From assembly GCA_018817085.1 (NCBI GenBank), contig JAHIUT010000038.1, forward strand, positions 9,441 to 73,440: DNA of 64,000 bases, in the 5' to 3' direction. Below, in pieces: positions 18,072 through 56,448 of this stretch. Below the pieces are notes generated by a model. It saw nothing but the letters and a program-made list of their open reading frames with translations, was not told where the DNA came from and did not search any database. The stretch comes from Patescibacteria group bacterium (GTDB taxonomy: Bacteria; Patescibacteriota; WWE3; CG2-30-40-12). The translations under genes were made by a program, and so were the position numbers. Position 1 is the stretch's first letter; every line of letters begins with the position of its first letter.

Positions 18072-18280
18072 ATAATGAGCAAAACAAGGAGATAATTTAT
18101 TCCATAACAGTTGAGGATTTACAAGATGAAGCTATTTGCCGAATCGGCAGAAAATTAACAGACGATGAATTATACACCGCAAAGAAATGTATTGAGTGGG
18201 GGTTGTCATCTGTTATTGATATAACTATGAAAGCCGCGATTGAGGAAGCGGTTGCACAAGACCGCAAAGCCGAACATTGA
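18068..18280 (+). CDS. Small hypothetical protein (70 aa) translationally coupled to the putative REase
   Basis: ATGA overlap with the upstream gene. No HTH was recognised, so function is unknown. Confidence 0.35.
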   Translation: MNNEQNKEIIYSITVEDLQDEAICRIGRKLTDDELYTAKKCIEWGLSSVIDITMKAAIEEAVAQDRKAEH

Positions 18281-18649: not shown

Positions 18650-19180
18650 ATGAAGATTATTATTATGGGCCCGCAGGGTTGTGGGAAATCTACTCAAGCG
18701 GAAAAAATTTCCGAAAAACTTAATATTCCGCATATTTCAACTGGTGACATTTTTAGAAAGCTGGAAAAAAGCAAAAGCCCTTTAGGAATTAGGGTTTTTA
18801 AGGAGATGTTGTCTGGAAAACTAGTTTCCGATGATGACACTATGCTTGTTATAAAAAGGGAATTGTCCCAACAAAAATACAAAAACGGTTTTATCATAGA
18901 CGGGTTTCCGAGAAATGTGTATCAAGCAAAACATTCTCCATTTAAGCCGGATATAATTTTGTATTTAAAAGTTTCCAAAGAAGTGTCCTTTGCGCGTTTA
19001 ATTGAAAGGAAAAGGGAAGACGATACCCCCAAGGTTATAAAAACGAGATTGTCGGAATATTACAAAAACACCACCCCTGTTCTTGACTACTACGAAAAAA
19101 CGGGAGTTCTAAGAACTTTTAACGGTGAACAGGAAATTGAGGGTTTATATCGGGAGTTAATCAAAGAGCTGGCGAGATGA
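18650..19180 (+). CDS. adk: Adenylate kinase (short form)
   Basis: P-loop IIIMGPQGCGKSTQAEKISEKLNIPHISTGDIFR, length 176 aa. Confidence 0.88.
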   Translation: MKIIIMGPQGCGKSTQAEKISEKLNIPHISTGDIFRKLEKSKSPLGIRVFKEMLSGKLVSDDDTMLVIKRELSQQKYKNGFIIDGFPRNVYQAKHSPFKPDIILYLKVSKEVSFARLIERKREDDTPKVIKTRLSEYYKNTTPVLDYYEKTGVLRTFNGEQEIEGLYRELIKELAR

Positions 19181-25282: not shown

Positions 25283-25360
25283 CAGAGGTTTTTCCTAATA
25301 AGGTAATACTTGAATGCAGGTATTGACAGTTGGTAACTTGTTACTTATAATAGGGGAGTT

Positions 25361-25597
25361 ATGAAAGAGTACATTACTACAGTAACTCAAAAAGGGCAGG
25401 TTACCATTCCTAAAATTTTAAGGGACGCTGTTGGAATTGAAACATATAAAAAAGTTTCTGTTAAGTCCAAAGGTAAATATATTTTTATTTACCCTAATAA
25501 AGATATATTGGATATTGCGGGAAAAATTAAAACGCAAAATAAAAAACCCGCGTTATTGGCAAGGGAATATTTAGAGAAAGGATATGAAAGAAATTAA
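25361..25597 (+). CDS. vapB: AbrB/SpoVT-domain antitoxin (VapB-like)
   Basis: TVTQKGQVTIPKILRDAVGIE is a swapped-hairpin AbrB motif. It lies immediately upstream of, and overlaps by 14 nt with, a PIN-domain gene. Confidence 0.6.
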   Translation: MKEYITTVTQKGQVTIPKILRDAVGIETYKKVSVKSKGKYIFIYPNKDILDIAGKIKTQNKKPALLAREYLEKGYERN

Positions 25598-26027
25598 TAC
25601 ATACTTTATTGACACCAATGTTTTTTTAAGAACCCTTATAAAGGAAGATAAGAACACTTTTAATGATTGTTTAGCCTTTTTTGAGAAAGTTAAAAACAAC
25701 AAATGCAAAGCGGTGACGGCAAGTATTGTTATTGCGGAGGTTGTATGGACGCTTTTATCTTTTTACAAAGTTTCCAAATCCGAAGTGATTATGGCGGTTA
25801 ATTCAATTAAAAATATGCGGGGGTTATCCATCATAGACGGTTATGATATAAAAACCGCTTTACAACTATTTGAGGATAACAATGTAAAATTTATTGATTG
25901 TATGATAGCGTCCACAAAAAGTGTTTCTAAAGACAAAATAACAATAGTTTCGTTTGACAAGGATTTTGATAAATTAGGAATTGCCAGAAAAGAACCGAAA
26001 CAGATAGCTTCTGTTTTATCTCTATAA
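25584..26027 (+). CDS. vapC: PIN-domain ribonuclease toxin (VapC-like)
   Basis: YFIDTNVFLRTL (first acidic residue) plus downstream D/E residues (IIDGYD; FDKDFDKLG). 147 aa. Confidence 0.7.
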   Translation: MKEINTYFIDTNVFLRTLIKEDKNTFNDCLAFFEKVKNNKCKAVTASIVIAEVVWTLLSFYKVSKSEVIMAVNSIKNMRGLSIIDGYDIKTALQLFEDNNVKFIDCMIASTKSVSKDKITIVSFDKDFDKLGIARKEPKQIASVLSL

Positions 26028-26113
26028 TCAAAAACACACCATTCCAAAAACAACCCGTCTACATGGGCAATATTTTTAAGCAGATTTTCTGTCATAGTTA
26101 AAATTATTGGAAT

Positions 26114-27181
26114 TTAATTGCAAACTACATAATGTAAATATTCGATTGTTTTGTTTGCTGTGTAGTCTCTATTTTCTGACTTATCGGCTTTAAACCTGTT
26201 ATATTCTTTCGTAAAATTTCCATATTTGCCCCGCAGGCTCATTATTTCCTTAATATCGTCCAAAGTCATCAAACCCTCGTTGTTATAGCTCAAAAAAATG
26301 TATTTTGCTTTTACCTTTAAAATCAAATCTTCAAATGTTTTTTTAACTTGGGGTACCGAACAGTAAAGCGATTTTTGATTTTGGTAGCTACGCAATCCTG
26401 TTTTTCCGTGAATTTCGGGATTGTCATATCTTGCAATAGTTTCGAGCAGGTGATAATTTGTAGCATATTGTCTATGATTATAGGGAGGGTCCAAATACAC
26501 AATGTCCCCGTTAACTTTTTCAGCCACAATATTTACATCCTCATTAAAAACCTTGTGTTTTCTGTCATTGATTATTAGTTCAGCTGGTTTCAAAACCAAA
26601 GTATTTTGAGCAGTCCTCTTTAGTTTTTTTAGGAAGGCCCCGTAAACAGAAGCTGTGTTTGCGTGTTTATCCACTGACTCCACCAAACTTGCAATCAAAA
26701 AATAGTATTCGTTTTCGGAAATCCGCTTTTCTTTTTTCCAGTTTTCAATTTTTTGGCGGATGTCATCACACAACATTCCGTTTTTATCAGAGAAATATTG
26801 CCGTTGCTCTTTTTCATCTTTTGTCCCTCCAAGGCAGTAATTTTTGTAAATAAATCCTTTCTTGCCTTTTAAGAGTGAAAGATAATCACAAACAAATCTT
26901 TTCCGATTCTTTATTTCAATATTTTTTAATTCGGGAATTTTCTTTCCGAGTTTTGAAAAAAACAACTCTTTGTGATTGCCGATGTAGTGTCTATTTAAAA
27001 CATAACTGTAATATTGAATGTCATTTGCGATTATTTTATAACCCCTTTTCTTGAAATAACTTCCAACGATTCCTGTTCCCGCAAACAGGTCACAAAAAGT
27101 AGCACAGTTTTTATCTACTACTTTGTTTATTGAATCTTCCAAAAATTCTAACAATGATAATTTACTGCCGATATAATTCAT
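26114..27181 (-). CDS. Dam-family (D12/alpha-class) N6-adenine DNA methyltransferase
   Basis: Motif X/I region MNYIGSKLSLL...FAGTGIV and motif IV VYLDPPYNHRQY. The order X-I...IV is the Dam/DpnM/MboIA architecture. Confidence 0.8.
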   Translation of the reverse strand: MNYIGSKLSLLEFLEDSINKVVDKNCATFCDLFAGTGIVGSYFKKRGYKIIANDIQYYSYVLNRHYIGNHKELFFSKLGKKIPELKNIEIKNRKRFVCDYLSLLKGKKGFIYKNYCLGGTKDEKEQRQYFSDKNGMLCDDIRQKIENWKKEKRISENEYYFLIASLVESVDKHANTASVYGAFLKKLKRTAQNTLVLKPAELIINDRKHKVFNEDVNIVAEKVNGDIVYLDPPYNHRQYATNYHLLETIARYDNPEIHGKTGLRSYQNQKSLYCSVPQVKKTFEDLILKVKAKYIFLSYNNEGLMTLDDIKEIMSLRGKYGNFTKEYNRFKADKSENRDYTANKTIEYLHYVVCN

Positions 27182-27185
27182 AATT

Positions 27186-28085
27186 TTAATTATGCAATAA
27201 GATTACAAAGCAAGGTGCTTTGTAATTTTTCTCGCCTTGAATTTTATGCTTATAAGCAAAATTGATTTCAAGTGGATTATCTAAATCGGTTTTATTTATA
27301 ATCTTTCTTATTTTCTCAATTGAAACATCCTCGTCAATATAAACAACTAGTAATCTTGGGTCGGCTCCAAATCTACCCTCGTCTTGATGTTTGTAAAGAT
27401 ATTCCGCAACAAGCTCCGGTTTGTTAATTGCTGTTTCGCGCCATTTATCTTTGAAATGTCTTTTGAACTCGTCGGTTGGACTTTTTGCAACCTTTTGATC
27501 AAAAGAAATTCCATTGATGAAAAAATCCACACCTCGCCTATGATTCAATGTCGGCAAAATATTGCTATTTTTTTCGAAAATCAATGTTTCTATAAAATCA
27601 TTTCTAACAGTGTTGATTTCCTTTATTCGTCTATATTTTACAGCGGCGACTCTTACTTTTTCATCTTTAACAAATCCATTTTCTTTCTCAGAATTCACTC
27701 TTTGCACAAAGTCATCAAAAGCTCCTTGCGAAAAAGGCCACGCAATATAGCCCAATTTCAATGATCTCCATTCCTTAATAAGCACATCCATTGCGCTGTC
27801 GGCCTCTTTCCCGCTTTTATATTTTTCAGTCTCTTTAAAAATACTCCTGATTACTTTTTTGCTTGCCTCATAATTCCAGCTATCAACAACGGCTTTCCAA
27901 AGTTCCTTTGTATCTAAATCCAAAACCTTTTTACCAGCATTCTGTCCTCGACTAATAGTTCTAAATTTTAGAGAGGGTACCTGTTTTATATAATTTAAGC
28001 GCAATAAATATTCCGTTGCCTTTTCTTGGCTACCAATAATTTTGTGCGCCAAATCCTCTGATAATTTTGATTTAATGTATTCCAT
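27186..28085 (-). CDS. Putative restriction endonuclease/effector of unit A (uncharacterised family; homologous to 30257..31354)
   Basis: Candidate PD-(D/E)xK core GVDFFINGISFDQKV. It aligns by eye with the 30257..31354 protein (VDFFIGDIPFDLKV; LVAEYLYKHQDEGRFGADPRLLVVYIDED versus LIKWLYEKQGERRFDAANRLFLVLIDKNN). Tight operon with MTases on both sides. Confidence 0.45.
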   Translation of the reverse strand: MEYIKSKLSEDLAHKIIGSQEKATEYLLRLNYIKQVPSLKFRTISRGQNAGKKVLDLDTKELWKAVVDSWNYEASKKVIRSIFKETEKYKSGKEADSAMDVLIKEWRSLKLGYIAWPFSQGAFDDFVQRVNSEKENGFVKDEKVRVAAVKYRRIKEINTVRNDFIETLIFEKNSNILPTLNHRRGVDFFINGISFDQKVAKSPTDEFKRHFKDKWRETAINKPELVAEYLYKHQDEGRFGADPRLLVVYIDEDVSIEKIRKIINKTDLDNPLEINFAYKHKIQGEKNYKAPCFVILLHN

Positions 28086-28087
28086 AA

Positions 28088-28870
28088 TTATTTTTTGAAA
28101 ATTAAAATATACTCGTGCTTAAAAATATAATAATCGCTGGATAATGCTCTATATCTCCATATTGCCTCTTTATTTTGTTTAGCTCTATTACCGCTCATAT
28201 TTTTAATTATAATACTTTTTAGCGTAAGCCCCAACTTTTTAGCTTCATCTAAGCAATAAAATCCTAATGGGACCCATTTACTTTGTGTATATTTATCACC
28301 AATAACGATTGCCAAATACCTGTCGTCATCTAAAATTTCAATGGTGTTTTTCAAAACCAGTGAAAACTTTTCTAAGAACTCTTTAAGTGATTTGGCATTT
28401 GATAGATCATCTTTCAAGTTGCTAAATTTAATAATATCAGCATAGGGGGGGTGCAAAATTGCTAATTGCACCTTTGTCCTTTGCTTTTTATTTAATACTT
28501 GGGCTATGCCAAAAAAAGTATTTTTGTCAGCACTATCTCCAGAAATAAGTTCTGCAAAGTAACTTTTGTTATCTACCTTGTTTTTAATGTGATTTATAAG
28601 TTCCGGTTGGATATCAACACCAACAAAATTTCTGCCCAAACTTTCGGCCTCATACGCGGTCGTTCCACTTCCGACAAATGGATCAAAAACAACATCGTTT
28701 TTCTTTGTGTACCGTAAAATTAATTGACGAGGAATTTGCGGGACAAAATTGCCATGATAAAAGCCGTCGTGTTTTCCTGATTTATCTCGTTCCGGTATAA
28801 TCCATAAACTATCCGTCCAAATTTCGGTATTTTTCCAATCCGCTAAATTTATATCATTGAAGTTTGGCAT
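28088..28870 (-). CDS. DNA methyltransferase (motif I DPFVGSGTT then motif IV HPPYAD), second MTase of unit A
   Basis: FDPFVGSGTTAYEAESLG followed by LAILHPPYADIIKF. 3-nt spacing to the downstream gene. Confidence 0.75.
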   Translation of the reverse strand: MPNFNDINLADWKNTEIWTDSLWIIPERDKSGKHDGFYHGNFVPQIPRQLILRYTKKNDVVFDPFVGSGTTAYEAESLGRNFVGVDIQPELINHIKNKVDNKSYFAELISGDSADKNTFFGIAQVLNKKQRTKVQLAILHPPYADIIKFSNLKDDLSNAKSLKEFLEKFSLVLKNTIEILDDDRYLAIVIGDKYTQSKWVPLGFYCLDEAKKLGLTLKSIIIKNMSGNRAKQNKEAIWRYRALSSDYYIFKHEYILIFKK

Positions 28871-29049
28871 GATTTTTTTATTAAATCCTCAACAATTCCA
28901 TTTAATTTCAAACTCGCCTTTTCCATGTGCGGGGAAATTTTAACGCCTTAATCTTTGTAAATTATACCATTTATTTGTGGGGGGAGTTGAAGTTTCATAC
29001 ATAGTGGGCTGACCCCAAAATATTAAAATGCATAAAGGAATATCCTCCT

Positions 29050-29077
29050 TTGCCCTTCGATTCTGGCTCGCCTTCGC
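29050..29077 (+). repeat. 28-bp perfect direct repeat, copy A (TTGCCCTTCGATTCTGGCTCGCCTTCGC)
   Basis: Identical 28-mer at 32489..32516. A short CCTCCT is also shared just upstream of both copies. Confidence 0.9.
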
Positions 29078-29115
29078 CGCCGCAATTTTTCGTGCCAACA
29101 AAGTTGGCGCGCCGC

Positions 29116-30273
29116 CTAAATCTTACTGAATTCTATCAAACTTTTTCGGTATATTTCAAATATCTTTGGAATTGTATCTATGTTTATCCATTCGTTTGGT
29201 GCGTGAACATTATTACTATCCACGCCGAAAGCGTTAATGATCGGGATATTAAGTTTACTGATAACATTTCCTATGCTTCCTTGACCGCTCGCGACAAGCG
29301 AAATTTCTTGGTCTAAAACTTCGCTTGCAGTATTTTTCAAAATTTGTACGAAAGAATTTTTGGAATCGGTTAGATATGCCTGTTCATGCTGTAAAATTTC
29401 TAAATTATGCTGGACTTTTAACTCATCCAGCTTTGCTTTTATTATGTCCAAAACTTCGTCTTTTGTTTGCGACGGAAGTAAACGAATATCTATATTTGCT
29501 TCGCACTTATCCGGCACAATATTGATTGCCACCCCGCCGTTGATTTGAGAAATATTGAGCGATGAGCCAAATTCAAAAAACGGTTCCGTTTTTTGGTCAA
29601 GATTTAGAGAAGTTATTACATTGATAACTTTACCCATTGCATGAATTGCGTTTATTCCTTTATTCGTTCTGCTTCCTGTGTGTGCCGATTTGCCAAGAAT
29701 AGTAATTTTGATTCGTAGCCAACCACGAGCACCGATTGAGATTTCATTTATTCCTTGATAGCCGAGAATACAAGTATCGGCTTTCGGTGCATGTTTAATA
29801 ACTTCTTTAACTCCAGTAAAATTTCCTGTTTGTTCATCTGCGTCAAAGCCAAGAAAAAACGAGGCATTAAAATTTTTATCTTCGGACAGTTCTTTTACGA
29901 GATGACAAAATAAAGCGATTGCAATTTTTGAATCTGCCGTGCCTCGGCCATACATTTTGTTGTCGATGATTTTTGCCTCAAAAGGCGGATGTTCCCATTT
30001 TTCGACATCGCCAGCCGGAACAGTATCCAAACAACTTTCAAGCCAAATTGTTTTAGATGGGTTTTCTTTTTTAATATGACAGATAACAGACGGGTGCTCT
30101 TTTGGTCCAATAATTTCGGGCTTAAAACCAAAACTTTTCAGCTTGTCAAAAACCAAATTAGCAATGCCGCTTTCCGAATCAATAAAATTCTGCGACGGCA
30201 TCGCAACCAATTTTTGCGTAAATTCAATAATTTGTTTAGTAATATTATCCATATTTTTAATCTTTAACGACAA
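29116..30273 (-). CDS. M20-family metallopeptidase (ArgE/DapE-like deacylase)
   Basis: GRGTADSK metal-binding motif and HxD-type region (HAPNEW). 385 aa, typical M20 two-domain size. Confidence 0.65.
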   Translation of the reverse strand: MSLKIKNMDNITKQIIEFTQKLVAMPSQNFIDSESGIANLVFDKLKSFGFKPEIIGPKEHPSVICHIKKENPSKTIWLESCLDTVPAGDVEKWEHPPFEAKIIDNKMYGRGTADSKIAIALFCHLVKELSEDKNFNASFFLGFDADEQTGNFTGVKEVIKHAPKADTCILGYQGINEISIGARGWLRIKITILGKSAHTGSRTNKGINAIHAMGKVINVITSLNLDQKTEPFFEFGSSLNISQINGGVAINIVPDKCEANIDIRLLPSQTKDEVLDIIKAKLDELKVQHNLEILQHEQAYLTDSKNSFVQILKNTASEVLDQEISLVASGQGSIGNVISKLNIPIINAFGVDSNNVHAPNEWINIDTIPKIFEIYRKSLIEFSKI

Positions 30274-31354
30274 AAATTACATCGGAAAGAGCGGTGTATC
30301 TTTTTCCGTCTATCCAGTCAAATTCTATTTTTAACTTCTCGGCTTCCTTGCCGTTGAATCTATCAAGATATCCGCTGATAGTATTTTTTAATATATCCAG
30401 ATTTCTTTTCATTTTCCAGCTTTCCTCAAGATTATTCTTATCAATAAGCACCAAGAACAAGCGATTTGCCGCGTCAAAACGTCGTTCTCCCTGCTTCTCA
30501 TAAAGCCACTTTATGAGTTTCTGCGGTTCTTTGATAACTCTTTGAATCATTGACCACCTCGTTTTCCTAAATTCCGCAATGAAGTTTTTCACTTCTGGTT
30601 TTTGACTCTCTTCAACTCGTGCCAGTAATTCCGCAAACAGGGCTTTGTTTTTCTGTTCTCGGTTATATTTAATGCCGAGCGTTTTTACAAAGCGTTTCAA
30701 AACCTGTAATTCGGTGGGTAAGCCGTCCGCTTTCCTACTTGCCGTCATAAACCCGTCGGGGAAATAGGTAACCTTCAAATCAAATGGAATATCGCCAATG
30801 AAAAAATCAACTTTTTTGATCAGCCCTACTGTTGGAGTAACTTTTTTATGATCCTTGAAAATGTCTTCAATCAAAATTGAAGTCCAGTGGTTGTACCAAG
30901 ACGATTGGACATAACCGCGCATGCTGTCGTGTATTTCATTCTCGATCTTTTCATTGAGCATATCAAAGCTACGAATTTTCTTGATATAGTTGTCAACTAT
31001 AGTTCTTTCGAGGTTGTTTTGATACAAGCCGCCCCAATCAAAAACTTTCATTTTGTAAAGCTCGGAAACAAGAGCGGTTTCATTCGCCTTTCTCCCCGAT
31101 CTTTCGGCGAGGTGCTTTTGAGCTATAAATTTATCGAGTAGCTCCTCTGATGGTTTTGCTTCGTAAACATGCTCAAAAAGTGCTGTGCCTCTAACATTTG
31201 AACAGTCAATTTTCGCGAGCATGCGAAATTCAACCAAAAGATCTTTCCTTGAAATTGAGCGAAGTTTGAGCCAATAAATACTGCCCTCTTCTTTTAGAAG
31301 AACATCAAATTTATTATCCTGATAAAGTTGTTTGAAATGTTTAAATTTATTCAT
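30257..31354 (-). CDS. Putative restriction endonuclease/effector of unit B (paralog of 27186..28085)
   Basis: KVDFFIGDIPFDLKV and the ...RRFDAANRLFLVLIDKNN... block are shared with the unit A protein. Start chosen at MNKFKHF (31354), which overlaps the Dam-like MTase stop by 8 nt. Longer in-frame alternatives extend to 31429. Confidence 0.45.
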   Translation of the reverse strand: MNKFKHFKQLYQDNKFDVLLKEEGSIYWLKLRSISRKDLLVEFRMLAKIDCSNVRGTALFEHVYEAKPSEELLDKFIAQKHLAERSGRKANETALVSELYKMKVFDWGGLYQNNLERTIVDNYIKKIRSFDMLNEKIENEIHDSMRGYVQSSWYNHWTSILIEDIFKDHKKVTPTVGLIKKVDFFIGDIPFDLKVTYFPDGFMTASRKADGLPTELQVLKRFVKTLGIKYNREQKNKALFAELLARVEESQKPEVKNFIAEFRKTRWSMIQRVIKEPQKLIKWLYEKQGERRFDAANRLFLVLIDKNNLEESWKMKRNLDILKNTISGYLDRFNGKEAEKLKIEFDWIDGKRYTALSDVIFVVKD

Positions 31355-32417
31355 AGCAATAAAATAAATATTCTTTTGTTCCTTTTTTTGAGCCCTTACC
31401 ACCATAATGATTTTGATATTCGTGCTCAAAAACTTTTACCTTTTTGTGCTGACTAATCAAATCAACAATAGTCTCTTTTCCGGGATAGCTTTCGCTGTTG
31501 TAAGAAATAAGCCAAAAAGGAATATGTGCGCTTACGGAAAAAAGTTTTTTGAAAGAATCGATAGTTTCTTCTTTGCGTACAAAACCGCTTTCTTTTTTAG
31601 GAAAATACTGTTTTGTTCCATTGATAAATTCCTTGTCTTTCCAATATTCCACAAAGGTTTCTAGAAAATGATAAAAGGCCTGATAATCTGGGTGGCAACC
31701 GTAATAAGGCGGGTCAAAATAAACCAAATCGATATTTTTCAGTTTTGGGATTAGTTGGATTGTATCTTCGCAGTAAACTTCGTTGTCTTTTTCGTTATCA
31801 AAAACTGCATTATTATATTCCGGAACCAATTCGAGAAATAAATCTTTAAGAGGGCGGGCTATAGTAGGATTCCTTTTCACTCGTAGCGGGTCTTTGCTGT
31901 AACGCAAAGCACTTAAATGAGCAAAGTGTCCGAGTAAAATTTTTCTGGTTAAAGACCTGCTCATTGTCGCGAGAGCAAGTGATTTTTTATACTCGTTATC
32001 AAGCAAATTGATATTTGATCTGAAATTATCAAGAAAACGAGCTTGATCTCGTTCAAAGAAAACATCAGTAAAAGTATCTTCGATAAGAGAGTCTGACTTT
32101 TTATTTTGTGAAAAGAGCAAGTCAATATCGTTGTCGTTAAGAGTAATGTCCTTATTTTCAATGAGTGCCTTGCCAATATGAAAATTGAATTTTAAGAAAT
32201 CATTTACAATAACTTTTTTACCTTTGTTCTTAAAATAGTAACCAACAACCGAAGTGCCGCTGAATGCATCCAAAAAACTCTCTATTTCTTTTGGGGCATT
32301 TTCAAAAATCCATCTTACTAAACGCTCTTTACTGCCAAGATATTGTGTCTTCGGCAATTTGTGCGATTTAATCGTTTCCCCGAATAATGTTGTTTGTGCT
32401 TGTTGTGATAAAAGCAT
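31347..32417 (-). CDS. Dam-family N6-adenine DNA methyltransferase, second copy (diverged from the 26114..27181 copy)
   Basis: TQYLGSKERLV (Y-x-GSK motif), DAFSGTSVVG, and LVYFDPPYYGCHPDY (DPPY). Confidence 0.75.
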   Translation of the reverse strand: MLLSQQAQTTLFGETIKSHKLPKTQYLGSKERLVRWIFENAPKEIESFLDAFSGTSVVGYYFKNKGKKVIVNDFLKFNFHIGKALIENKDITLNDNDIDLLFSQNKKSDSLIEDTFTDVFFERDQARFLDNFRSNINLLDNEYKKSLALATMSRSLTRKILLGHFAHLSALRYSKDPLRVKRNPTIARPLKDLFLELVPEYNNAVFDNEKDNEVYCEDTIQLIPKLKNIDLVYFDPPYYGCHPDYQAFYHFLETFVEYWKDKEFINGTKQYFPKKESGFVRKEETIDSFKKLFSVSAHIPFWLISYNSESYPGKETIVDLISQHKKVKVFEHEYQNHYGGKGSKKGTKEYLFYCYE

Positions 32418-47561: not shown

Positions 47562-48203
47562 CTATTCTTGTCCAAAGCCTAAAAGTAGCGCCTTTGCGGC
47601 GTTTTTATTGGGCTTAAATCCCCAAACAGCTAGTTTGTTATACATCAGTTCTGTTAAAGTGTCAAATTCCGGTTCGTTTATATTTATAGTTCCGAAATTG
47701 GCGGTTTCGTCTCGGTTATCTATGCTTAAGACGGGAGTTTTTCTAAAATATTCAGTATTTTCGTAATATACATTGCCCAGCTCGCCCAGATTTTTAGCTC
47801 CTATTACAATAATTAGGTCATAAGTTTCACCTGTTTTTGTAAAACTAACGCGATTTAAATCAAAACTTGAAGGAATAGGGGTAACCACCAAATTTAAAGT
47901 CTCGTCTTTTATGTAATAATTTATTTTTTCTACTGGGGTATCTTTGTAGTTTATGCCAACTACTAAACTTTTTTGGTCAAACACTTTTTTAATGTCTAAA
48001 AGGTTTTCAAATTCCTTAAGTTCAATTGGAAACTCTTTGGAATACAATAAAGAAACCTCCTTTGAAAGGTCTTTTATTATAAAACTTATCGCTAGCGCCG
48101 CGCTTAAAGCATCGGTTCTTTCTGTAGTATCGGGAATAACCAACACTTTTTTGGCGTTTTCAATAAGGTCCAAAACATGTTTTTTATCGTCTGATATAAG
48201 CAT
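47562..48203 (-). CDS. Hypothetical protein resembling a degenerate DHH/NrnA-like phosphoesterase N-domain
   Basis: Position upstream of rpsO-pnp matches where NrnA-like DHH proteins sit in many bacteria. VLVIPDTTERTDALSAALAISFI resembles DHH motif I/II, but the DHH triad is absent. Confidence 0.3.
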   Translation of the reverse strand: MLISDDKKHVLDLIENAKKVLVIPDTTERTDALSAALAISFIIKDLSKEVSLLYSKEFPIELKEFENLLDIKKVFDQKSLVVGINYKDTPVEKINYYIKDETLNLVVTPIPSSFDLNRVSFTKTGETYDLIIVIGAKNLGELGNVYYENTEYFRKTPVLSIDNRDETANFGTININEPEFDTLTELMYNKLAVWGFKPNKNAAKALLLGFGQE

Positions 48204-48361: not shown

Positions 48362-50116
48362 ATGGTTACCGTGTCCGAAGTTCGGGAAAAATATATAAAC
48401 TTTTTTGTAGGGAAAAATCACAAAATCATTCCTCCCGCTCCTATTGTTCCTAAAGACGACCCAACCACTTTGTTCACTTCTTCCGGTATGCAGGCGCTTG
48501 TCCCTTACTTAATGGGCAAACCGCATCCTCTTGGAAAGAGACTCGTCAATTCGCAACCGGTTATTCGTCTTGGCGATATAGATCTTGTGGGGGATTTTGG
48601 ACATCTCACCTTTTTTGAAATGTTGGGGAACTGGTCTTTGGGCGATTATTTTAAGAAAGAACAACTTGCCTATTTTTACGAATTTTTAACTAAAGAGCTT
48701 GGTTTTGAAAAGGAAAGACTTTTTGTAACATATTTTGAAGGAAGCAGATTTATTCCAAAAGATGAAGAAACTATCCTAACTTGGAAGAAGCTTGGAGTTA
48801 AGGACGACCATATTTACGGTTACTCTGTTGAAAAAAACTGGTGGTCTAGGTGCGGAACGCCTGATGAAATGAGTGTTGGTGAGATAGGGGGTACTGATTC
48901 CGAAGTTCTTTACGATTTTGGAAGTTCCCATAATGTCGCCTTTGGGGAAAAATGCCATCCTAACTGCGATTGCGGAAGGTTTTTGGAAATTGGAAACTCG
49001 GTTTTTATGGAGTATATAAAAAAAGAGGACGGTACTTTTGAAAAACTGCCTCAAAAGAATGTGGATTTTGGAGGAGGTCTTGAAAGGCTTACTTTTGTGG
49101 TTAACAACACGCCAGATATTTTTGAAATAGATGTTTTTCAAAAAATAATTCAAGAAATTGAAAAATTTTCAAAAAAGAGCTATTCGGACAAGTCCTTTGC
49201 TCCCGCTATTAGAGTAATGGCGGACCACATACGAGCGGCGGAGTTTTTAATATCCGCAGGCGTTGTTCCTTCTAATAAAGACCAAGGGTATATTTTGCGA
49301 AGGCTCATTAGACGATTTGCGGTTAAAATGGCGGGTCTTACGGGAAGTACATCCTCTTTGGAATTATTGAGAAAATCCTCTTTTGTTAGCAATTCTGTTT
49401 GCGAGGAGCTTAAAAAATTTTCGCTGGCATTAGATAAAGGTCTTAAAGTTTTGGAAAAAATGGTTAAAGAAACTCCTAGCGGGAACATTTTTTCTGGCGA
49501 AAAGGCGTTCTTGTTATACGAGTCCTACGGATTTCCCGTTGAAGTAACGGAGGAGCTTGTCCGCCAAAAAGGGTTTATTAAAGGTGTTGACACTAAAGAG
49601 TTTCTTGCTCAAAAAGAATATCATATAGAAGTGTCCAGAAAATTGTCCAAAGGATTATTTAAAAGCGGACTTGCCGATAAAAGCGAAGAAACCAAAAAAC
49701 TTCACACCGCCACCCATCTTTTGCATTCCGCTTTAAGAAAAGTTTTAGGAGAAGATATTGCGCAAAAAGGCAGTAATGTTACCGCCGAAAGATTGCGGTT
49801 TGATTTTTCCTATAACCGTCGTCTTACCGACGAAGAAATTTCCAAAGTGGTGGATATGGTCAACGAAATTATATCAAAAGGACTTATTGTCCAGTGCAAA
49901 GAAATGTCTCTTAAAGACGCGCAAGAATCGGGGGCGCTTGCTTTTTTTGGCGAGAAATATGGCGACAGGGTAACGGTTTATGAAGTAGGGGATTTTTCAA
50001 AGGAGCTTTGTGCCGGCCCTCATGTGGAAAACACCAGAGAGCTTGGAAAATTCAAGATAATTAAGCAAGAATCTGTTGGCAGTAATACTAGGAGAATAAA
50101 AGCAATTTTGCAATAA
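48362..50116 (+). CDS. alaS: Alanyl-tRNA synthetase, compact form (catalytic + tRNA-recognition + editing-like domain with HxxxH/CxxxH; no C-Ala domain)
   Basis: N-terminal class II AlaRS motifs (FFVGKNHKIIPPAPIVPKDDPTTLFTSSGM; FEMLGNWSLGDYFK). C-terminal TATHLLHSALRK and SKELCAGPHV zinc-binding editing motifs. Only 584 aa. Confidence 0.85.
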   Translation: MVTVSEVREKYINFFVGKNHKIIPPAPIVPKDDPTTLFTSSGMQALVPYLMGKPHPLGKRLVNSQPVIRLGDIDLVGDFGHLTFFEMLGNWSLGDYFKKEQLAYFYEFLTKELGFEKERLFVTYFEGSRFIPKDEETILTWKKLGVKDDHIYGYSVEKNWWSRCGTPDEMSVGEIGGTDSEVLYDFGSSHNVAFGEKCHPNCDCGRFLEIGNSVFMEYIKKEDGTFEKLPQKNVDFGGGLERLTFVVNNTPDIFEIDVFQKIIQEIEKFSKKSYSDKSFAPAIRVMADHIRAAEFLISAGVVPSNKDQGYILRRLIRRFAVKMAGLTGSTSSLELLRKSSFVSNSVCEELKKFSLALDKGLKVLEKMVKETPSGNIFSGEKAFLLYESYGFPVEVTEELVRQKGFIKGVDTKEFLAQKEYHIEVSRKLSKGLFKSGLADKSEETKKLHTATHLLHSALRKVLGEDIAQKGSNVTAERLRFDFSYNRRLTDEEISKVVDMVNEIISKGLIVQCKEMSLKDAQESGALAFFGEKYGDRVTVYEVGDFSKELCAGPHVENTRELGKFKIIKQESVGSNTRRIKAILQ

Positions 50117-50133
50117 ATTATAGAAAGAAAATT

Positions 50134-51267
50134 ATGAATGAATTATTGGTTGAATGGACATTGTTAAGGGAACAAGATTATTTGAATAAATGCCTTGGTC
50201 TTGATTTAAAAAAGAAAATTCTTCAACAATTTTCTACTGAATATGGAAGAATTGATTTTGCCCACGAATTAAGTGATGGGTCAATTGCAATTACAGAACT
50301 TGAAACAATCATTGATAATAAAGCTAAGCTTGAGTATTGTCAATTTCAAACTCTTGAGTATTCAAAAATCATTTTTCAAGAAAAGAAAAAACCAATTATT
50401 ATAGTTTTAATTGCAGATGAAACCCCAAACAAATTCAAAACACAATTAAAAACTTTTGCTGATAAGAATGATTTTCTTCTCAAAACCTATTCTATTTATA
50501 TTGTAAACAGCTATTATAAGCAACTGATTGAAGAGGCGGTTAAAAATTCTGGGGTGCCACTTATTAGACCTGTTGCGAATAATTTCACTCACCTTTCTTG
50601 TCTTAATAGATTTATTCTTCCATTTTATGATTTGGAAAAAGATGAATTGAAGAGAGAGGATTTTATAAACTACTTTAATTTAAAAAAAAATAAAGCGGAT
50701 AGCCACTTTAAAGTTCATAAACAAATGGCTGAATATTTTCAGTTAATTGAAGATATATCAACAACCAAACAATTTAGCAGGGTTTGTCTTACTGGATACG
50801 GAAAGAGATTTCGTGATAATTTGAATTATGAATTTGCACTTGTAAAGAGATCTTTAAAAGTAGGGGTTAAACGAATTGATTTAAGCATTGAGCAAAGAAG
50901 GATTTTACTTGAAAGTTTGATGAACGGAAACATTGGGGATTTAAAAGGTAAAGTCAACTTGCTTTACTTCTTGCGTTTTGTTTATTTGACTGAAGGTACT
51001 TGGGTTCCGAGAGGAAGAACACTAGATAAACAGAAATTAGAATTTGCAAACAGTTTCCTTGGAACAAATTATTCTCAGATAACTCTTTGTAATTGGCTTA
51101 ATTTCGTCTGCACTCATTCAGAAGAATTAGGTTTAATAGAAAGAATAAGAACAAATGCTGAATATGATAGAGTGATTCTTTCAAGCTTAGGTTCAAGAGT
51201 TTTAGGTTTTATTGAGATGGATTTACATTTAAAGAGAGAACGAGCACAAATTCCTTTACAGCTATGA
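50134..51267 (+). CDS. Hypothetical protein with N-terminal PD-(D/E)xK-like (NucS/Hjc-like) motif and ~270-aa C-terminal domain of unknown function
   Basis: YGRIDFAHELSDGSIAITELETIID resembles the GRIDLLA.D.DG.LVVIELK nuclease core, but Lys is replaced by Thr. The region is markedly more AT-rich than its neighbours. Confidence 0.35.
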   Translation: MNELLVEWTLLREQDYLNKCLGLDLKKKILQQFSTEYGRIDFAHELSDGSIAITELETIIDNKAKLEYCQFQTLEYSKIIFQEKKKPIIIVLIADETPNKFKTQLKTFADKNDFLLKTYSIYIVNSYYKQLIEEAVKNSGVPLIRPVANNFTHLSCLNRFILPFYDLEKDELKREDFINYFNLKKNKADSHFKVHKQMAEYFQLIEDISTTKQFSRVCLTGYGKRFRDNLNYEFALVKRSLKVGVKRIDLSIEQRRILLESLMNGNIGDLKGKVNLLYFLRFVYLTEGTWVPRGRTLDKQKLEFANSFLGTNYSQITLCNWLNFVCTHSEELGLIERIRTNAEYDRVILSSLGSRVLGFIEMDLHLKRERAQIPLQL

Positions 51268-51470
51268 GAACAGGAAAATTCTTCATTACGGAGGAAGATT
51301 ATAAGTTGATTGCTTCTACTCCTGAAAAGGAGTGCTGGATTTGCGATGTATTAATTAATAGTGTCCGGGTAAATCAAAAAGGGATTTATCTTACGAAGAA
51401 GGCGCTATTAGATGAGGGAATAGCTGAACATCTTATGCAAATTGTAAAAAGGGATATAGTTTTTATTTAA
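51264..51470 (+). CDS. Small hypothetical protein (68 aa), translationally coupled (ATGA overlap) to 50134..51267
   Basis: MRTGKFFITEEDYKLIASTPEKECWICDVLINS... No recognised motif. Confidence 0.35.
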   Translation: MRTGKFFITEEDYKLIASTPEKECWICDVLINSVRVNQKGIYLTKKALLDEGIAEHLMQIVKRDIVFI

Positions 51471-51551
51471 TCTTGATGTTTTTAAATACAAGGAAGGTGA
51501 TGTAAATTTAGAAAAAACTTATTATGTTGAATAGATGACAGGGGGGAAATT

Positions 51552-52748
51552 TTGGTCTATACTTTATTTAGTATGTTTAATCCTCTTTCTTTAATAAGAA
51601 AAAATAAGCGCAATAAAAGTTTTTTGGCTATAGATTTGGGTTCTTCACTAATTAAAATAAGCAGGTTTTCCTTTTTGCCGGACAATCGGCTTTTGCTTGA
51701 AGATATTTCCACCGTAAACACACCCGAAGGCGCGGTTGGTTTGGGAGTAATTACCGATTTAGATTCAACCTTTGAAGCTTTAAAAAGTTCTGTTTCTCCT
51801 TATGATAATGTTATTTTTGGTCTTTCCGGCGAAAGTGTTTTTGGGTTCGCCACTACGGTAAAAATTAAAAGACCCGCTTATGACGAAAAAATTTCCAGCG
51901 GGGAATTAAATGAAATAATAAAAAGAATACAAGAACTTGCGTTTATTGAAGCGGGTCAAATTCAATTATCCAAAATAGGTTGCGGAGAAACGGATATAGA
52001 AATGGTTAACTCCGCGGTTATCTCATCCAAAATAGATGGCGCGTTGGTTGAAGATGTTGTTGGAAAAGTTGGCAAACACATAGAAATAGGTCTTTTTACA
52101 TCTTTTGCCGAGAAGAGTGTTTTGTCGGGTCTTTTAGAGCTTTGCAAGAAATTAAAAATCAATTTCACCGCCGCTAGTTCTCAAATGTATTCCTTATCAA
52201 AATTGTTATGCGCGAACCAAAAGGGTACTTTTAACGCCGTTTTAATAGATTTTGGCGGCGATAAAACGGATGTGGGGATTTGTTATGGCGGAGGTATTGT
52301 GGCCACTAAAACATTGGATTTTGGCGGCACTCAACTTACAAAGGAAATAGCGGCAATACTTGATGTGGCGCTTAACGAAGCCGAGAAAAAGAAAGTATCT
52401 TACGAAGAAGGAACATTGGGGGCGGAGCAGATTAAAGAAATTACTTCAAAAGTTTTAAATTATTGGCTTGCGGGTATAGAAACAGTTTTAGAAAATTTTG
52501 AGGGTATTAAAGTTTTCCCGCCTAAAATTTTTATATTTGGGGGCGGGGGGTTAACTTATGATTTAATGCGGGTTTTAAAAGAACGGAGCTGGTACGAGAA
52601 CTTTCCGTTTAAATTTGTTCCCGAAGTGGAAATTGTTAGCATAGAAAAATTGTCTGATATAATAGAAGACCCTAACGGGTTTTTGAAAGATTTGCGAAAT
52701 ATAGTTCCTGTTTCTTTAGGTTTAATTGGTTTAGAAATTTTTGGTTAA
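51552..52748 (+). CDS. Actin-like ATPase of the FtsA/PilM family
   Basis: FLAIDLGSSLIKISRF (phosphate-1), VLIDFGGDKTDVGI (phosphate-2) and IFIFGGGGLT (adenosine motif) give a sugar-kinase/actin fold. There is no adjacent ftsZ. Confidence 0.5.
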   Translation: MVYTLFSMFNPLSLIRKNKRNKSFLAIDLGSSLIKISRFSFLPDNRLLLEDISTVNTPEGAVGLGVITDLDSTFEALKSSVSPYDNVIFGLSGESVFGFATTVKIKRPAYDEKISSGELNEIIKRIQELAFIEAGQIQLSKIGCGETDIEMVNSAVISSKIDGALVEDVVGKVGKHIEIGLFTSFAEKSVLSGLLELCKKLKINFTAASSQMYSLSKLLCANQKGTFNAVLIDFGGDKTDVGICYGGGIVATKTLDFGGTQLTKEIAAILDVALNEAEKKKVSYEEGTLGAEQIKEITSKVLNYWLAGIETVLENFEGIKVFPPKIFIFGGGGLTYDLMRVLKERSWYENFPFKFVPEVEIVSIEKLSDIIEDPNGFLKDLRNIVPVSLGLIGLEIFG

Positions 52749-54607: not shown

Positions 54608-55580
54608 AATTAAATTGCCACATTGGAAATTTTTGACCGTCGTTTTGCTATTTTTAACGGCTTTTGCGGTTTTGTATTCTTTGGGGGTGAAAAGAGCCAA
54701 CCGCTACGACTTGGGAAAAGAATCTTTTAAAGAGGTTGTTATAAACAAAGGAGCTTCAGTGGAAGAGATTTCAAAAATATTGGTTAGAGAAGACTTAATA
54801 AACTCGCGCGCTTTATTTAAATTATATGTGTATATTAGTAATAAAAGTCTTCAGGCGGGGAATTTTTATGTTCCCACGAACATAAGTGTGGTGGAGTTGG
54901 CTAATCTTTTGGGTAAAGGGAGTTTTCAGAAAAAATACACTTTTTTAGAAGGTTGGCGCGTGGAGCAGATGGCAGAGCTTTTGCCTAAAGATGTCCAAAA
55001 CGAGTTTCTTAAAAGCTCTTACACTAAAGAAGGGTTTATGTTTCCCGACACCTACTTTTTTCTGGAAAGCGCAATTGGGGAGGAAATTGCCCAAACTTTA
55101 AGCCAGACTTTTGAAGATAAAATAAAAGTTTTTGACAAGGAAATCAAGGCAAGTTCCCTTTCTTTGGAGGAGATTGTTATTTTAGCATCTATAATTGAAA
55201 GAGAAGCTAAAAGTTTTGATGAGAAGGCGACAATTGCTGGGATTTTGGTAAAAAGGTACCAAAACGGATGGCCTTTGCAGGCGGACGCTACTATTCAGTA
55301 CGCCAAGGATTTAAACGCCTTTACTTGCGCATCTTTATCCGACTGTGTTTGGTGGCGTCCGCTATTTGCCACAGATTTGGATATAGAGTCCTCTTATAAT
55401 ACATACAAATATGCGGGGTTACCTCCAACACCGATATGCAGTCCCGGACTGGAATCTATAAGGGCGGTTTTGGAGTATAAAGAAACCCCATATTGGTTTT
55501 ATTTAACGGGAAACGATGGGGTAACGCGCTTTTCCGAGACGGTAGAAGAGCAAACGGCTAATATACAAAAGTATTTGTAG
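54588..55580 (+). CDS. mltG: Endolytic murein transglycosylase MltG (YceG family)
   Basis: N-terminal TM and YceG-like domain (KKYTFLEGWRVEQMAELL; FMFPDTYFF; ASIIEREA). The 3' end lies inside direct repeat R1. Confidence 0.8.
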   Translation: MKPMKIKIKLPHWKFLTVVLLFLTAFAVLYSLGVKRANRYDLGKESFKEVVINKGASVEEISKILVREDLINSRALFKLYVYISNKSLQAGNFYVPTNISVVELANLLGKGSFQKKYTFLEGWRVEQMAELLPKDVQNEFLKSSYTKEGFMFPDTYFFLESAIGEEIAQTLSQTFEDKIKVFDKEIKASSLSLEEIVILASIIEREAKSFDEKATIAGILVKRYQNGWPLQADATIQYAKDLNAFTCASLSDCVWWRPLFATDLDIESSYNTYKYAGLPPTPICSPGLESIRAVLEYKETPYWFYLTGNDGVTRFSETVEEQTANIQKYL

Positions 55581-55638: not shown

Positions 55639-56448
55639 TCATTCTAATGGACTTTTGACATTTTTAAGTTTGGGATTAGTTACTTGCGTATAAAGTTGAG
55701 TAGTTCTAATGTTTTGATGTCCTAATAATTCTTGCACATACCGCACATCGACGCCATTTTCCAAAAGGTGGGTAGCAAAGCTATGGCGCAGACTATGAAA
55801 AGTGGCATCTTTTTTAACGCCAGATTTTTTAAAGGAATTTTCAAAAACTTTTTGAGCGGTTCTTGTGGTCAGTTTTCCACCCCGCTCACTTGAAAACACA
55901 AAATCGTTTTTTTCTTTGCCGGCAATAAGGTTTTGAATATCTGCTGATAACTTCTCTGGAAAAACACTAATTCTGTCCTTTTTGCCTTTTGCCTGCTTAA
56001 TATGAATGGTCAATTCATGAAAATCAATGTCTTGCGCTTTTAGGCTTATTGCTTCACTAACGCGTAATCCAGCGCCATAAGCAAGCGATAGAAGTAATTT
56101 ATGCTTCGTGTTTTCGGTTGCTTCAAGGATTTTTTCTATTTCACTCCTTGAAAGCACTACGGGAAGGCTTTTATTTTTCTTAGCTGATCGAATTTCTATT
56201 TTCTCATTTGTGATGTTGCGATAGTAGAATTTAACCGCATTCAGAAGCAGGTTTCTTGTTTCTGCCGATACGCCTTTCTTTTCGCAAAACAGTAGAAAGT
56301 CTTTGATGTTATCTCTATCCAATATTTCAAGATTATCCTTTTTATAAACAAAATATTCCTTGAGTCCGTAAAGGTAACTTTTTATGGTTTTGCTACTGTA
56401 ATTGCGGATTTTTAATTCCCGTTCTGTTTGCCCTAATTGTTGTTGCAT
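55639..56448 (-). CDS. Tyrosine-type site-specific recombinase/integrase (XerC/D-like)
   Basis: C-terminal catalytic motifs HSLRHSFATHLLENGVDVRYVQELLGHQNIRTTQLYTQV (R..H..Y). N-terminal SAM-like core-binding domain. 269 aa. Confidence 0.8.
   Translation of the reverse strand: MQQQLGQTERELKIRNYSSKTIKSYLYGLKEYFVYKKDNLEILDRDNIKDFLLFCEKKGVSAETRNLLLNAVKFYYRNITNEKIEIRSAKKNKSLPVVLSRSEIEKILEATENTKHKLLLSLAYGAGLRVSEAISLKAQDIDFHELTIHIKQAKGKKDRISVFPEKLSADIQNLIAGKEKNDFVFSSERGGKLTTRTAQKVFENSFKKSGVKKDATFHSLRHSFATHLLENGVDVRYVQELLGHQNIRTTQLYTQVTNPKLKNVKSPLE

Follow-up and report, generated by a model that had tools for sequence, protein, structure and literature searches.

Fusions of a PD-(D/E)XK nuclease domain to winged-helix domains are an established architecture of modification-dependent enzymes, and in 87% of the characterised enzymes of this winged-helix type no methyltransferase (MTase) gene lies nearby (PMC11037411). 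The anticodon nuclease PrrC is embedded in a Type I hsd operon (PMC2610378). Active restriction endonucleases (REases) with E, Q or N in place of the active-site Lys, or with the Lys relocated, have also been documented (PMC4081073). Here we describe a gene pair from a streamlined Patescibacteria genome, found in a 64,000-nucleotide stretch of DNA that we refer to as the window, which encodes a 377-aa protein and a 68-aa partner. The pair is to be annotated as an orphan restriction-linked nuclease pair, rather than as a housekeeping gene or a toxin-antitoxin pair. The likeliest identity of the 377-aa protein is that of a restriction-type nuclease that works autonomously and may be Type IV-like; it represents a new, unnamed family of a familiar kind rather than a new kind of system.

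Like the DpnI-type Type IIM/IV enzymes and Mrr, the 377-aa protein carries an N-terminal PD-(D/E)xK domain followed by winged-helix readers, and, as in the window, DpnI-type enzymes can be encoded by a stand-alone gene without a methylase. However, there is no sequence relationship to either DpnI-type enzymes or Mrr, and the 377-aa protein combines a pair of winged helices with a long C-terminal helix. The neighbourhoods also differ, in that an MTase is found near 13% of the known winged-helix fusions, whereas an MTase or its remnant is adjacent in 30 of the 39 assessable loci of the 377-aa family, for which modification dependence is putative. Since this amounts to about three quarters of the loci, set against the 87% of known enzymes that have no MTase nearby, the family as a whole appears more closely tied to methylases than is typical of a Type IV enzyme. 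Compared with NucS/EndoMS (NucS_C; PDB 2vld, 5gke), the 377-aa protein lacks the N-terminal dimerisation and mismatch-binding domain, has the nuclease N-terminal to two winged helices, carries ELE in place of the NucS ELK and belongs to a family whose context is restriction-modification, not repair. Its identification as a NucS/EndoMS mismatch endonuclease was rejected, as the nuclease domain starts at residue 1 with the winged helices after it and there is no significant match to a family model.

FokI and N.BspD6I-type Type IIS enzymes have the reverse domain order and are about 200 residues longer; in addition, the 377-aa family is often found without a functional methylase, in an operon that has its own REase of about 610 aa. 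PrrC is similar in being a second effector gene between the genes of a restriction-modification operon, but it is a tRNase, in contrast to the DNA-type nuclease fold of the 377-aa protein. Moreover, because the 377-aa gene is kept under selection after loss of restriction-modification, it cannot depend on such a system as PrrC depends on EcoprrI. Finally, Shedu (SduA, DUF4263) is distinguished by the lack of any DUF4263 or PADLOC Shedu match for the 377-aa protein, in which the nuclease is N-terminal and the winged helices C-terminal, and by a different genomic context.

Searches of Pfam, NCBIfam, PADLOC and PHROGs returned no significant match for either protein, in agreement with a preliminary description of this locus made from the DNA sequence, which had recognised no known family. 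None of 150 homologues of the 377-aa protein contains a Pfam domain. The most recurrent weak match of the family is Pfam NucS_C, which stays below threshold, occurs in 4 of 22 members and does not extend to the window protein; a single weak Mrr_N-like wing motif was also found in the family. A PDB sequence search with the 377-aa protein as single query gave nothing useful. The family comprises only 91 clusters among 1.84 billion representatives, with a patchy distribution driven by horizontal gene transfer (HGT), and no member turned up in the viral contig collection or the plasmid collection searched.

The 377-aa gene (50134..51267, + strand) is predicted to encode an endonuclease in which a nuclease domain is followed by two winged helices and a C-terminal helix. 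The first of these, an N-terminal PD-(D/E)xK domain of RecB/NucS type, spans residues 1-140 (50134..50553, + strand) and has the alpha-beta-beta-beta-alpha-beta core fold of the superfamily, in its RecB/NucS branch. A Foldseek search with an AF2 model of the protein (pLDDT 85.9) ranked NucS/EndoMS first, and the alignment of the family profile to PDB entries gave the correct catalytic register, so that the nuclease-like N-terminal motif noted in the preliminary description is borne out as a NucS/RecB-type core by both fold and profile. The motif itself, YGRIDFAHELSDGSIAITELETIID, corresponds to residues 37-61. It had been read as having Thr at the lysine position, but this needs correction, as the ELK of NucS pairs with E55-L56-E57, which places Glu57 there and not Thr58. 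Within the catalytic triad D41 (50254-50256) and E55 (50296-50298) are invariant, the K position is taken by the likewise invariant E57 (50302-50304), and an invariant K65 follows 8 residues on. The family also has a QxxxY motif, with Q72 and Y76 invariant over the range of 20-100% identity and aligned with SQMKRY of NucS. Altogether, invariance down to 20% identity holds for E3, D41, E55, E57, K65, Q72 and Y76, and the set E3, D41, E55-x-E57, K65 and Q72xxxY76, with Glu for the canonical Lys and an invariant Lys available close by, is predicted from the sequence to form an active site.

Next come two winged-helix domains of DNA-binding type. The first covers residues about 150-235 (50581..50838, + strand) and the second residues about 250-350 (50881..51183, + strand), and they are followed by a long conserved helix at residues 351-376 (51184..51261, + strand; helix H351-376 of the AF2 model), in which R368 and E369 are invariant. 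By analogy with MarR/PadR-like architecture, this helix probably dimerises the protein. The second winged helix and the C-terminal helix are the best conserved part of the protein, the latter with a mean identity of 83% in A1, and the DNA-binding half as a whole is more conserved than the nuclease half. The two winged-helix domains, along with the origin of this orphan from a larger restriction-modification context, had been overlooked in the preliminary description. For the 377-aa gene, dN/dS is 0.06-0.10 against its relatives; the window's own branch has a value of about 0.07 and that of another orphan copy (L007) 0.03-0.06. The orphan copy in the window is thus under strong purifying selection.

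The second gene, a fast-evolving 68-aa ORF (51264..51470, + strand), overlaps the 377-aa ORF by an ATGA at 51264-51267, read in the sequence, and is translationally coupled to it. A word-index search with the 68-aa protein retrieved only itself, but homologues of 42-48% identity follow the 377-aa homologue in other phyla and share the motifs ECWIC(D/N) and EHLxQI; judged by these, the 68-aa ORF is a real gene. Homologues of it are present in L017, L019, L039, L042, L055 and L058. A single-sequence AF2 model of its product had a pLDDT of 65 and was left out of the analysis. At the same divergence dN is about 0.40 for the 68-aa gene versus 0.056 for the 377-aa gene, meaning that the small ORF evolves about 7 times faster. 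The ATGA overlap is kept in many loci; the small ORFs found beside the nuclease nevertheless fall into 5 or more unrelated families whose distribution departs from the nuclease tree, and the nuclease is intact without a small ORF in L013, L056/57 and L059. These observations do not bear out the earlier notion of an obligate nuclease and small partner or toxin module.

In the window, the cassette is preceded by alaS (tRNA-synt_2c match, E 5e-107), which ends at 50116, and followed by an FtsA/PilM_2-like gene that starts at 51552. A scan for promoters and terminators found no promoter-like or terminator-like site in the 17 nt that separate the alaS stop codon from the cassette start (50117..50133, + strand), and the cassette is therefore presumably transcribed by read-through from alaS. 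The downstream spacer of 81 nt (51471..51551, + strand) is where homology with other cassettes ends in DNA alignments, and a promoter-like site in front of the FtsA-like gene was found by the scan at 51535-51563. The region of the window cassette that shares DNA homology with other loci runs from the ATG to the stop codon of the small ORF. No direct or inverted repeats bounding the cassette were found, nor was a target duplication, a promoter belonging to the cassette or a terminator, and a search for remnants of restriction-modification genes (MTase M1 or REase, see below) beside it was likewise negative. The 20 kb on each side of the cassette hold no MTase gene, the nearest lying at window positions of about 28 kb and 16.5 kb. 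Related strains were searched for an empty site by way of identical ribosomal protein S15; none of the three other assemblies of the same species that span the junction has an empty site, and all carry the identical cassette at the same position (4 assemblies in total).

The GC content of the cassette is 0.307 and that of the whole window 0.377 (z = -3.0), which places the cassette in the lowest 0.5% of stretches of the same length, and GC3 of the 377-aa gene is 0.22 versus 0.31-0.38 in neighbouring genes. Low GC is not unique to the cassette, as the 25-29 kb stretch of the window, another restriction-modification island, has values of 0.32-0.33. At other loci, the homologous gene is lower in GC than the distal flanks in all 16 cases tested. 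In addition, homologues of the 377-aa protein are 73-90% identical across at least eight phyla. Judged from this composition and distribution, the gene pair is horizontally acquired. The preliminary description, which had seen two ORFs joined by an ATGA overlap between alaS and an FtsA/PilM-like gene, had called them more AT-rich than their flanks and had suggested horizontal acquisition, is therefore upheld on these points.

Relatives of the 377-aa gene show its usual context. Most homologues are located inside a Type IIS-like operon that comprises an HTH-MTase (M1), a second MTase (M2) and the REase of about 610 aa, for which a plasmid search gave only one distant hypothetical match and NCBIfam gave no name. 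In its form without the 377-aa gene the operon reads M1-M2-R, whereas otherwise the 377-aa gene and a small ORF occupy the M1/M2 junction, usually in place of M2. The same junction elsewhere holds SIR2-HerA, PDC-S60, PDC-S02 or an AAA_13 ATPase, and the 377-aa gene adjoins N6_N4 MTases and a homologue of PADLOC REase_II. Together, the restriction-modification operons and the hotspot with SIR2-HerA and PDC-S60 lend weight to the defence-type association that had been proposed from the window. The order of MTase and 377-aa gene persists into subfamilies at 36-48% identity, with three MTase classes, which suggests functional coupling. On the other hand, among the 39 assessable intact copies the neighbouring MTase is defective, truncated or frameshifted, in 13 and no MTase is present in the flank in 9, the latter being the window and 8 other lineages. 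MTase truncation points fall at 5 or more different places, the upstream cassette junctions lie at no fewer than 8 different positions, and the REase is trimmed to varying extents while the 377-aa gene is intact. Two further ideas were discounted. A nuclease that attacks DNA methylated by its own neighbour M1, and so forces M1 to decay, does not fit L042/L043, where an apparently full-length M1 stands beside an intact 377-aa gene; in L055, M1 can be followed up to 9 residues short of its end. Descent of the 377-aa protein from an M2 methylase by divergence, an idea prompted by its similar length and position in the same slot, was dismissed as there is no sequence similarity and the fold is that of a nuclease with winged helices.

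The association with methylases lends itself to an explanation that we consider unlikely though still credible, namely that the 377-aa protein is a classical Type II or IIS REase, or a subunit of one, with M1 as its cognate methylase, and that the window copy is tolerated either through an unlinked methylase of the genome that covers its site or through catalytic silence in the absence of a partner. An MTase in the same orientation lies directly upstream in most loci, including those of distant subfamilies and all three MTase classes; in L015 no nuclease candidates other than a 367-aa homologue and a 112-aa ORF stand beside MTase M282, of which a 71%-identical copy is encoded at 16483-17331 of the window, along with two further MTases; and a nuclease with several winged helices recalls FokI. 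This explanation has to contend with a neighbouring MTase that is defective or absent in 22 of the 39 intact copies, with at least five truncation points, with the missing linked functional cognate methyltransferase in the window, with strong purifying selection on orphan branches and with the separate recognised REase (PADLOC REase_II) that already stands beside M1 and M2. Also hard to reconcile with it is the Capnocytophaga copy, which has an M1 cut to 113 aa and without its SPPY motif, is listed for 115 contigs in the protein collection and shows the same arrangement in 6 of 6 loci fetched from different samples. The 22 copies with a defective or absent MTase, the several copies without a small ORF and the orphan dN/dS of about 0.07 together argue against a methylase-protected REase of the classical kind, and equally against a toxin-antitoxin or addiction pair in which the nuclease is the toxin and the 68-aa protein the antitoxin. 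The tight ATGA coupling kept in many loci, the horizontal mobility of the pair and the fast evolution of the small protein would suit such a pair, yet with small-ORF families that are off the nuclease tree, a nuclease that does without them, no match of either protein to a toxin-antitoxin family in Pfam, NCBIfam or PADLOC, and a size of 377 aa with two DNA-binding domains that is atypical of a type II toxin, we find it hardly believable.

Somewhat better placed, but improbable in our view, is the idea of a selfish nuclease cassette that behaves like a homing element, settling in restriction-modification or methylase operons and spreading with them without gain to the host. This would account for the discrete, constant boundaries amid differing flanks, for a position that varies within the operon (M1-377-small-M2 in L046, M2-377-small-M1 fragment in L048, an M2 remnant upstream in L023), for the 5' MTase gene fragments that abut the cassette start (from two M1-like clades and the M283 family, with a 67-aa MTase-like N-terminal ORF in L029), and for the spread across phyla at high identity with GC below that of the distal flanks, while the conserved DNA-binding domain suggests a conserved target. 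However, there is no single insertion site, target duplication or terminal repeat, no recombinase is associated, and neither the viral contig collection nor the plasmid collection yielded a member of the family. Fixed orphans should decay under a homing cycle, which is at odds with their low dN/dS and with invariance in four assemblies of a streamlined genome, and ordinary decay of restriction-modification genes around a selected gene explains the loss of flanks equally well. A role outside defence, either as a NucS- or Vsr-like repair nuclease for methylase-induced lesions or as a nuclease-derived transcription factor of the operon, appears very improbable. The closest fold is indeed that of a mismatch endonuclease, MarR/PadR-like winged helices in tandem are characteristic of regulators, conservation of the DNA-binding half is high and the gene persists among housekeeping genes. 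However, the mismatch-binding domain of NucS is missing, invariance throughout the catalytic set speaks against a pure regulator, the patchy HGT-driven spread is unlike that of a repair function, and a regulator of a restriction-modification operon has no reason to outlive it.

The explanation that we favour is a sequence- or feature-specific endonuclease of restriction-linked origin that is an orphan here, works independently of a methylase and is Type IV-like; we judge the chance that it is right to be about even. Gene structure, fold, invariant residues, genomic contexts, selection and orphan status are shown by the analysis, whereas nuclease activity, dimerisation, the kind of target and a role in defence are deduced from them. 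A dimer would bind a conserved DNA feature through its winged helices, and its two NucS-like domains would cut the bound DNA. Host DNA would be spared because it does not have the recognised feature, for example a foreign base modification, and it is this that would make the enzyme a restriction nuclease of Type IV-like character that needs no methylase. As for the small ORF, it may act as an accessory modulator rather than an essential antidote. In the genome studied here, the methylases and the REase have been lost, leaving the nuclease and its 68-aa partner behind alaS with no promoter of their own. Several observations speak against the favoured explanation. Among them are the MTases or MTase remnants adjacent to most family members and the order of MTase and 377-aa gene retained in distant subfamilies. 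Restriction enzyme specificities usually diversify, and the conserved DNA-binding half is unusual in this respect. The canonical catalytic Lys is missing. Nor was the family found in PADLOC or in the viral contig and plasmid collections searched, which means that it has no independent defence annotation. A bolder proposal, which we regard as doubtful, is a new class of autonomous nuclease specialised in moving into two-methylase restriction operons, where it would take the place of one methylase and then outlive the operon. This would be either a restriction-modification parasite with winged helices that read a conserved DNA feature of the operon, or a methylase-independent REase with a D/ExE site and a swappable small modulator.

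The family is unnamed in Pfam, NCBIfam, PADLOC and PHROGs, yet it is highly similar across very distant phyla and is under selection in a streamlined Patescibacteria genome. The M1/M2 junction that it occupies in its relatives is a clear insertion hotspot for defence cargo and could be mined for further unknown systems. If the 377-aa protein is indeed a methylase-independent restriction nuclease, it would represent a new enzyme family that could become a reagent with a conserved specificity, and would show that accessory effectors in restriction-modification operons are able to outlast their host operons.

The cassette consists of two forward-strand genes, a 377-aa gene (50134..51267) and a 68-aa ORF (51264..51470) joined to it by an ATGA overlap, and it lies, as claimed in the preliminary description, after alaS (48362-50116; tRNA-synt_2c match, E 5e-107, with Pfam also reporting tRNA_SAD) and before an FtsA/PilM_2-like gene. 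Just 17 nt separate the alaS stop at 50116 from the start codon of the large gene, and the downstream gap is 81 nt. Since the alaS-cassette gap holds no promoter-like site and no terminator was found on either side of the cassette, the pair is presumably transcribed by read-through from alaS. The alaS product, at only 584 aa a short one among bacterial AlaRS proteins, ends right after the tRNA_SAD match.

DNA homology to other cassettes starts at the ATG and stops at the stop codon of the small ORF, and no direct or inverted repeats flank the window cassette. Records from Patescibacteria MAGs include an identical protein, and an identical cassette recurs at the same site in three further assemblies of the species; over the cassette itself and the 3 kb that follow it, position 51498 is the sole difference from the window. 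In two of these three assemblies the 3' end of alaS shows 12 differences from the window in 46 nt (50011-50056), some 80-120 nt before the cassette begins. As similar SNP clusters occur at 47958-48039, 49552-49632 and 54629-55092, ordinary mosaic recombination may account for this one. A 269-aa tyrosine recombinase (Xer/phage-integrase type, ...HSLRHSFATHLLE...LLGH...) is encoded 4 kb downstream of the cassette on the reverse strand (55639-56448); we found no evidence linking the two.

The A/T-richness originally noted for this segment is confirmed by its GC content of 0.307 versus 0.377 for the window (z = -3.0, bottom 0.5% of equal-length windows) and by a GC3 of 0.22 in the large gene versus 0.31-0.38 in its neighbours. 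Homologous genes likewise had lower GC than their distal flanks in 16 of 16 other loci tested. With 91 clusters in a set of 1.84 billion representatives the family is small, and identities of 73-90% are found across Patescibacteria, Nitrospinae, Ignavibacteria, Bacteroidia, Capnocytophaga, Treponema, Acidobacteriota and Anaerolineae. Together with the composition, this spread supports the proposed horizontal acquisition. Neither protein has a match in Pfam, NCBIfam, PADLOC or PHROGs, in agreement with the initial failure to recognise a known family, and a housekeeping assignment of the pair is ruled out by the data. The 377-aa family is unnamed; its domains and general logic are already known.

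Comparable AT-richness is seen at 25-29 kb of the window, likewise a restriction-modification island. This island (24068-31429, GC 0.32-0.33) contains several defence-related genes and, with its two methylases, is reminiscent of a DpnII-type system: besides an RmuC-like gene and a PIN-like 147-aa gene (25584-26027), it encodes on the reverse strand a 355-aa MTase with a DPPY motif (26114-27181), a 299-aa protein (27186-28085), a 260-aa alpha-order MTase (28088-28870) and a 390-aa protein (30257-31429) that has a VDFFI..I.FD.KV motif in common with the 299-aa protein. A further restriction-modification system (16483-18280) sits inside the ribosomal-protein/secY/adk cluster, between secY (15187-16470) and adk (18650-19180). 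Its three genes overlap one another: a 282-aa beta-class N6_N4 MTase carrying a TSPPY motif is accompanied by a 247-aa protein, which shows a D...EIK motif and matches no family, and by a 70-aa ORF; the MTase is 71% identical to that adjoining a 367-aa homologue of the large gene in an Ignavibacteria locus (L015). The 64-kb window therefore has at least three restriction-modification loci.

An AF2 model of the 377-aa protein, built from 23 homologues (mean pLDDT 85.9), places an alpha-beta-beta-beta-alpha-beta nuclease core in residues 1-140, for which Foldseek ranks NucS/EndoMS first. The family profile also finds NucS as its top match among PDB sequences, weakly (E 0.23) and in the right register, with G-R-I-D aligned to G-I-V-D, ELE to ELK and QxxxY to QMKRY, and among the sub-threshold Pfam matches of divergent members NucS_C recurs most often. 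Residues invariant in members down to 20% identity include E3, G38, D41, E55, L56, E57, K65, Q72 and Y76. The nuclease-like N-terminal motif is thus real, while the threonine initially assigned to the lysine position was a misreading: alignment to NucS puts Glu57 at the canonical Lys position, with the invariant K65 also available. Such a D/ExE active site is unusual; active restriction enzymes are documented with Glu (BamHI), Gln or Asn at this position, as are others with the catalytic Lys supplied from elsewhere (PMC4081073).

Among 77 fetched loci from other genomes (handles with L), 69 encode a homologue of the 377-aa protein, in most cases immediately 3' of the gene for an N6_N4 DNA methyltransferase (M1; 332-388 aa when complete, motif I preceding a TSPPY motif, often with an HTH_17 domain). 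The usual order continues with a small ORF and then a protein matching PADLOC REase_II (R; E 2e-16, 607-612 aa in its full-length form). Operons without the 377-aa gene have the order M1 - M2 - R, M2 being a second N6_N4 methylase (374-382 aa), and constitute a two-methylase system of Type IIS-like character. Just behind the HTH-MTase M1 lies a junction that is a hotspot for the insertion of defence cargo, also in some operons with the 377-aa gene: SIR2-HerA (L022, L036), PDC-S60 (metallophosphatase and STAND NTPase; L023), PDC-S02 (DUF1016/YhcG) with an unannotated 1089-aa protein that has no match in Pfam or PADLOC (L032), and an 862-aa AAA_13 ATPase (L035). The 377-aa gene and small ORF fill this M1|M2 slot, usually replacing M2, and their position varies (M1-377-small-M2 in L046, M2-377-small-M1 fragment in L048); L023 retains an M2 remnant upstream of the 377-aa gene. 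In none of the libraries searched is the family described inside two-methylase operons.

Distant subfamilies (36-48% identity) adjoin other methylases and other nucleases, in the orders M2-like MTase, 368-aa homologue, 119-aa ORF, PLD nuclease; beta-class MTase, HNH nuclease, 71-aa ORF, 380-aa homologue; and 367-aa homologue, 112-aa ORF, beta-class MTase. In L019, a 153-aa ORF (1614-2075) between the small ORF and the REase remnant has an N-terminus that resembles, by eye only, an IS200/IS605-type transposase. The motif TCTAACTTTGTAAnATT, absent in the window, is conserved directly 5' of the ATG in L017, L018, L019 and L039-L042 and contains TAnnTTTG, the Bacteroidota-type -7 promoter element; to judge from this motif, the 377-aa gene may have its own promoter and a very short leader in these lineages.

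The mapped loci show a consistent pattern, with an intact 377-aa gene between neighbours that are cut back. M1 is cut 3' at residues about 102-110, 161, 190-199 or 335-345 and in every case adjoins the start codon of the 377-aa gene, and the REase is cut 5' anywhere between residues 10 and 560. Intact copies number 41 in a set of 50 distinct ones (97% identity or less), and for 39 of the 41 the flanks are long enough for assessment. The MTase is apparently complete in 17 of the 39 (many partly visible at a contig edge), truncated or frameshifted in 13 and absent from the flank in 9, so that 56% have no intact neighbouring methylase. The window copy, beside which no M1 or REase remnants are left, belongs to the last class, as do copies in a hydrogenase operon (L007), beside NAD kinase (L056/57) and beside secA (L058, which retains a 63-aa REase remnant). 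In the Capnocytophaga version, listed on 115 contigs and identically arranged in 6 of 6 fetched loci from different samples, M1 is down to 113 aa without its SPPY motif and the REase to 303 aa. In L040 and L041 only residues 1-102/110 of M1 survive, its N-terminal part with HTH_17; behind it come the 377-aa gene, a small ORF and a REase that is apparently full-length (frameshifted in L041), with no methylase on the contig. Purifying selection on the orphan nucleases is strong: comparison of the window gene with its relatives yields a dN/dS of 0.06-0.10 (dS 0.7-2), and a three-taxon split gives about 0.07 for the window's own branch and 0.03-0.06 for that of the orphan L007.

The 68-aa ORF is a real gene, with homologues (42-48% identity; conserved motifs ECWIC(D/N) and EHLxQI) 3' of the nuclease in L017, L019, L039, L042, L055 and L058. 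It is not an obligate partner, since small ORFs of at least five unrelated families are found at this position, the family does not track the nuclease tree (L040, with 88% identity, has another small-ORF type than L017 with 90%), its dN is about 7x that of the nuclease, and intact nucleases lack it in L013, L056/57 and L059. The coupled small partner of the preliminary description is confirmed as a gene, and its membership of a toxin module is not supported; a partner that is dispensable and swappable argues against a toxin-antitoxin pair. A purely selfish homing element is likewise argued against by the lack of a single target site and of repeats, and by the strong purifying selection still acting on orphans.

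The leading rival is a classical REase or REase subunit, which is favoured by the frequent linkage of the family to methylases: an MTase or its remnant is adjacent in about three quarters of the loci, versus 13% with an MTase nearby among known winged-helix fusions (PMC11037411). This linkage is also the main counter-argument to a methylase-independent (Type IV-like) mode. Against dependence on a neighbouring methylase stands the majority of intact copies without an intact one. A Type IV-like mode fits the ability of the nuclease to stand alone as well as the PD-(D/E)XK and winged-helix architecture known from modification-dependent enzymes (PMC11037411).

The best-supported reading is that of an autonomous restriction-type DNA endonuclease, for which we infer the cleavage activity, target and defence phenotype. 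The protein would dimerise through its C-terminal helix, with the winged helices recognising DNA and the NucS-like domains cutting it, and the nuclease travels embedded in restriction-modification operons, as do restriction-linked effectors such as PrrC (PMC2610378).
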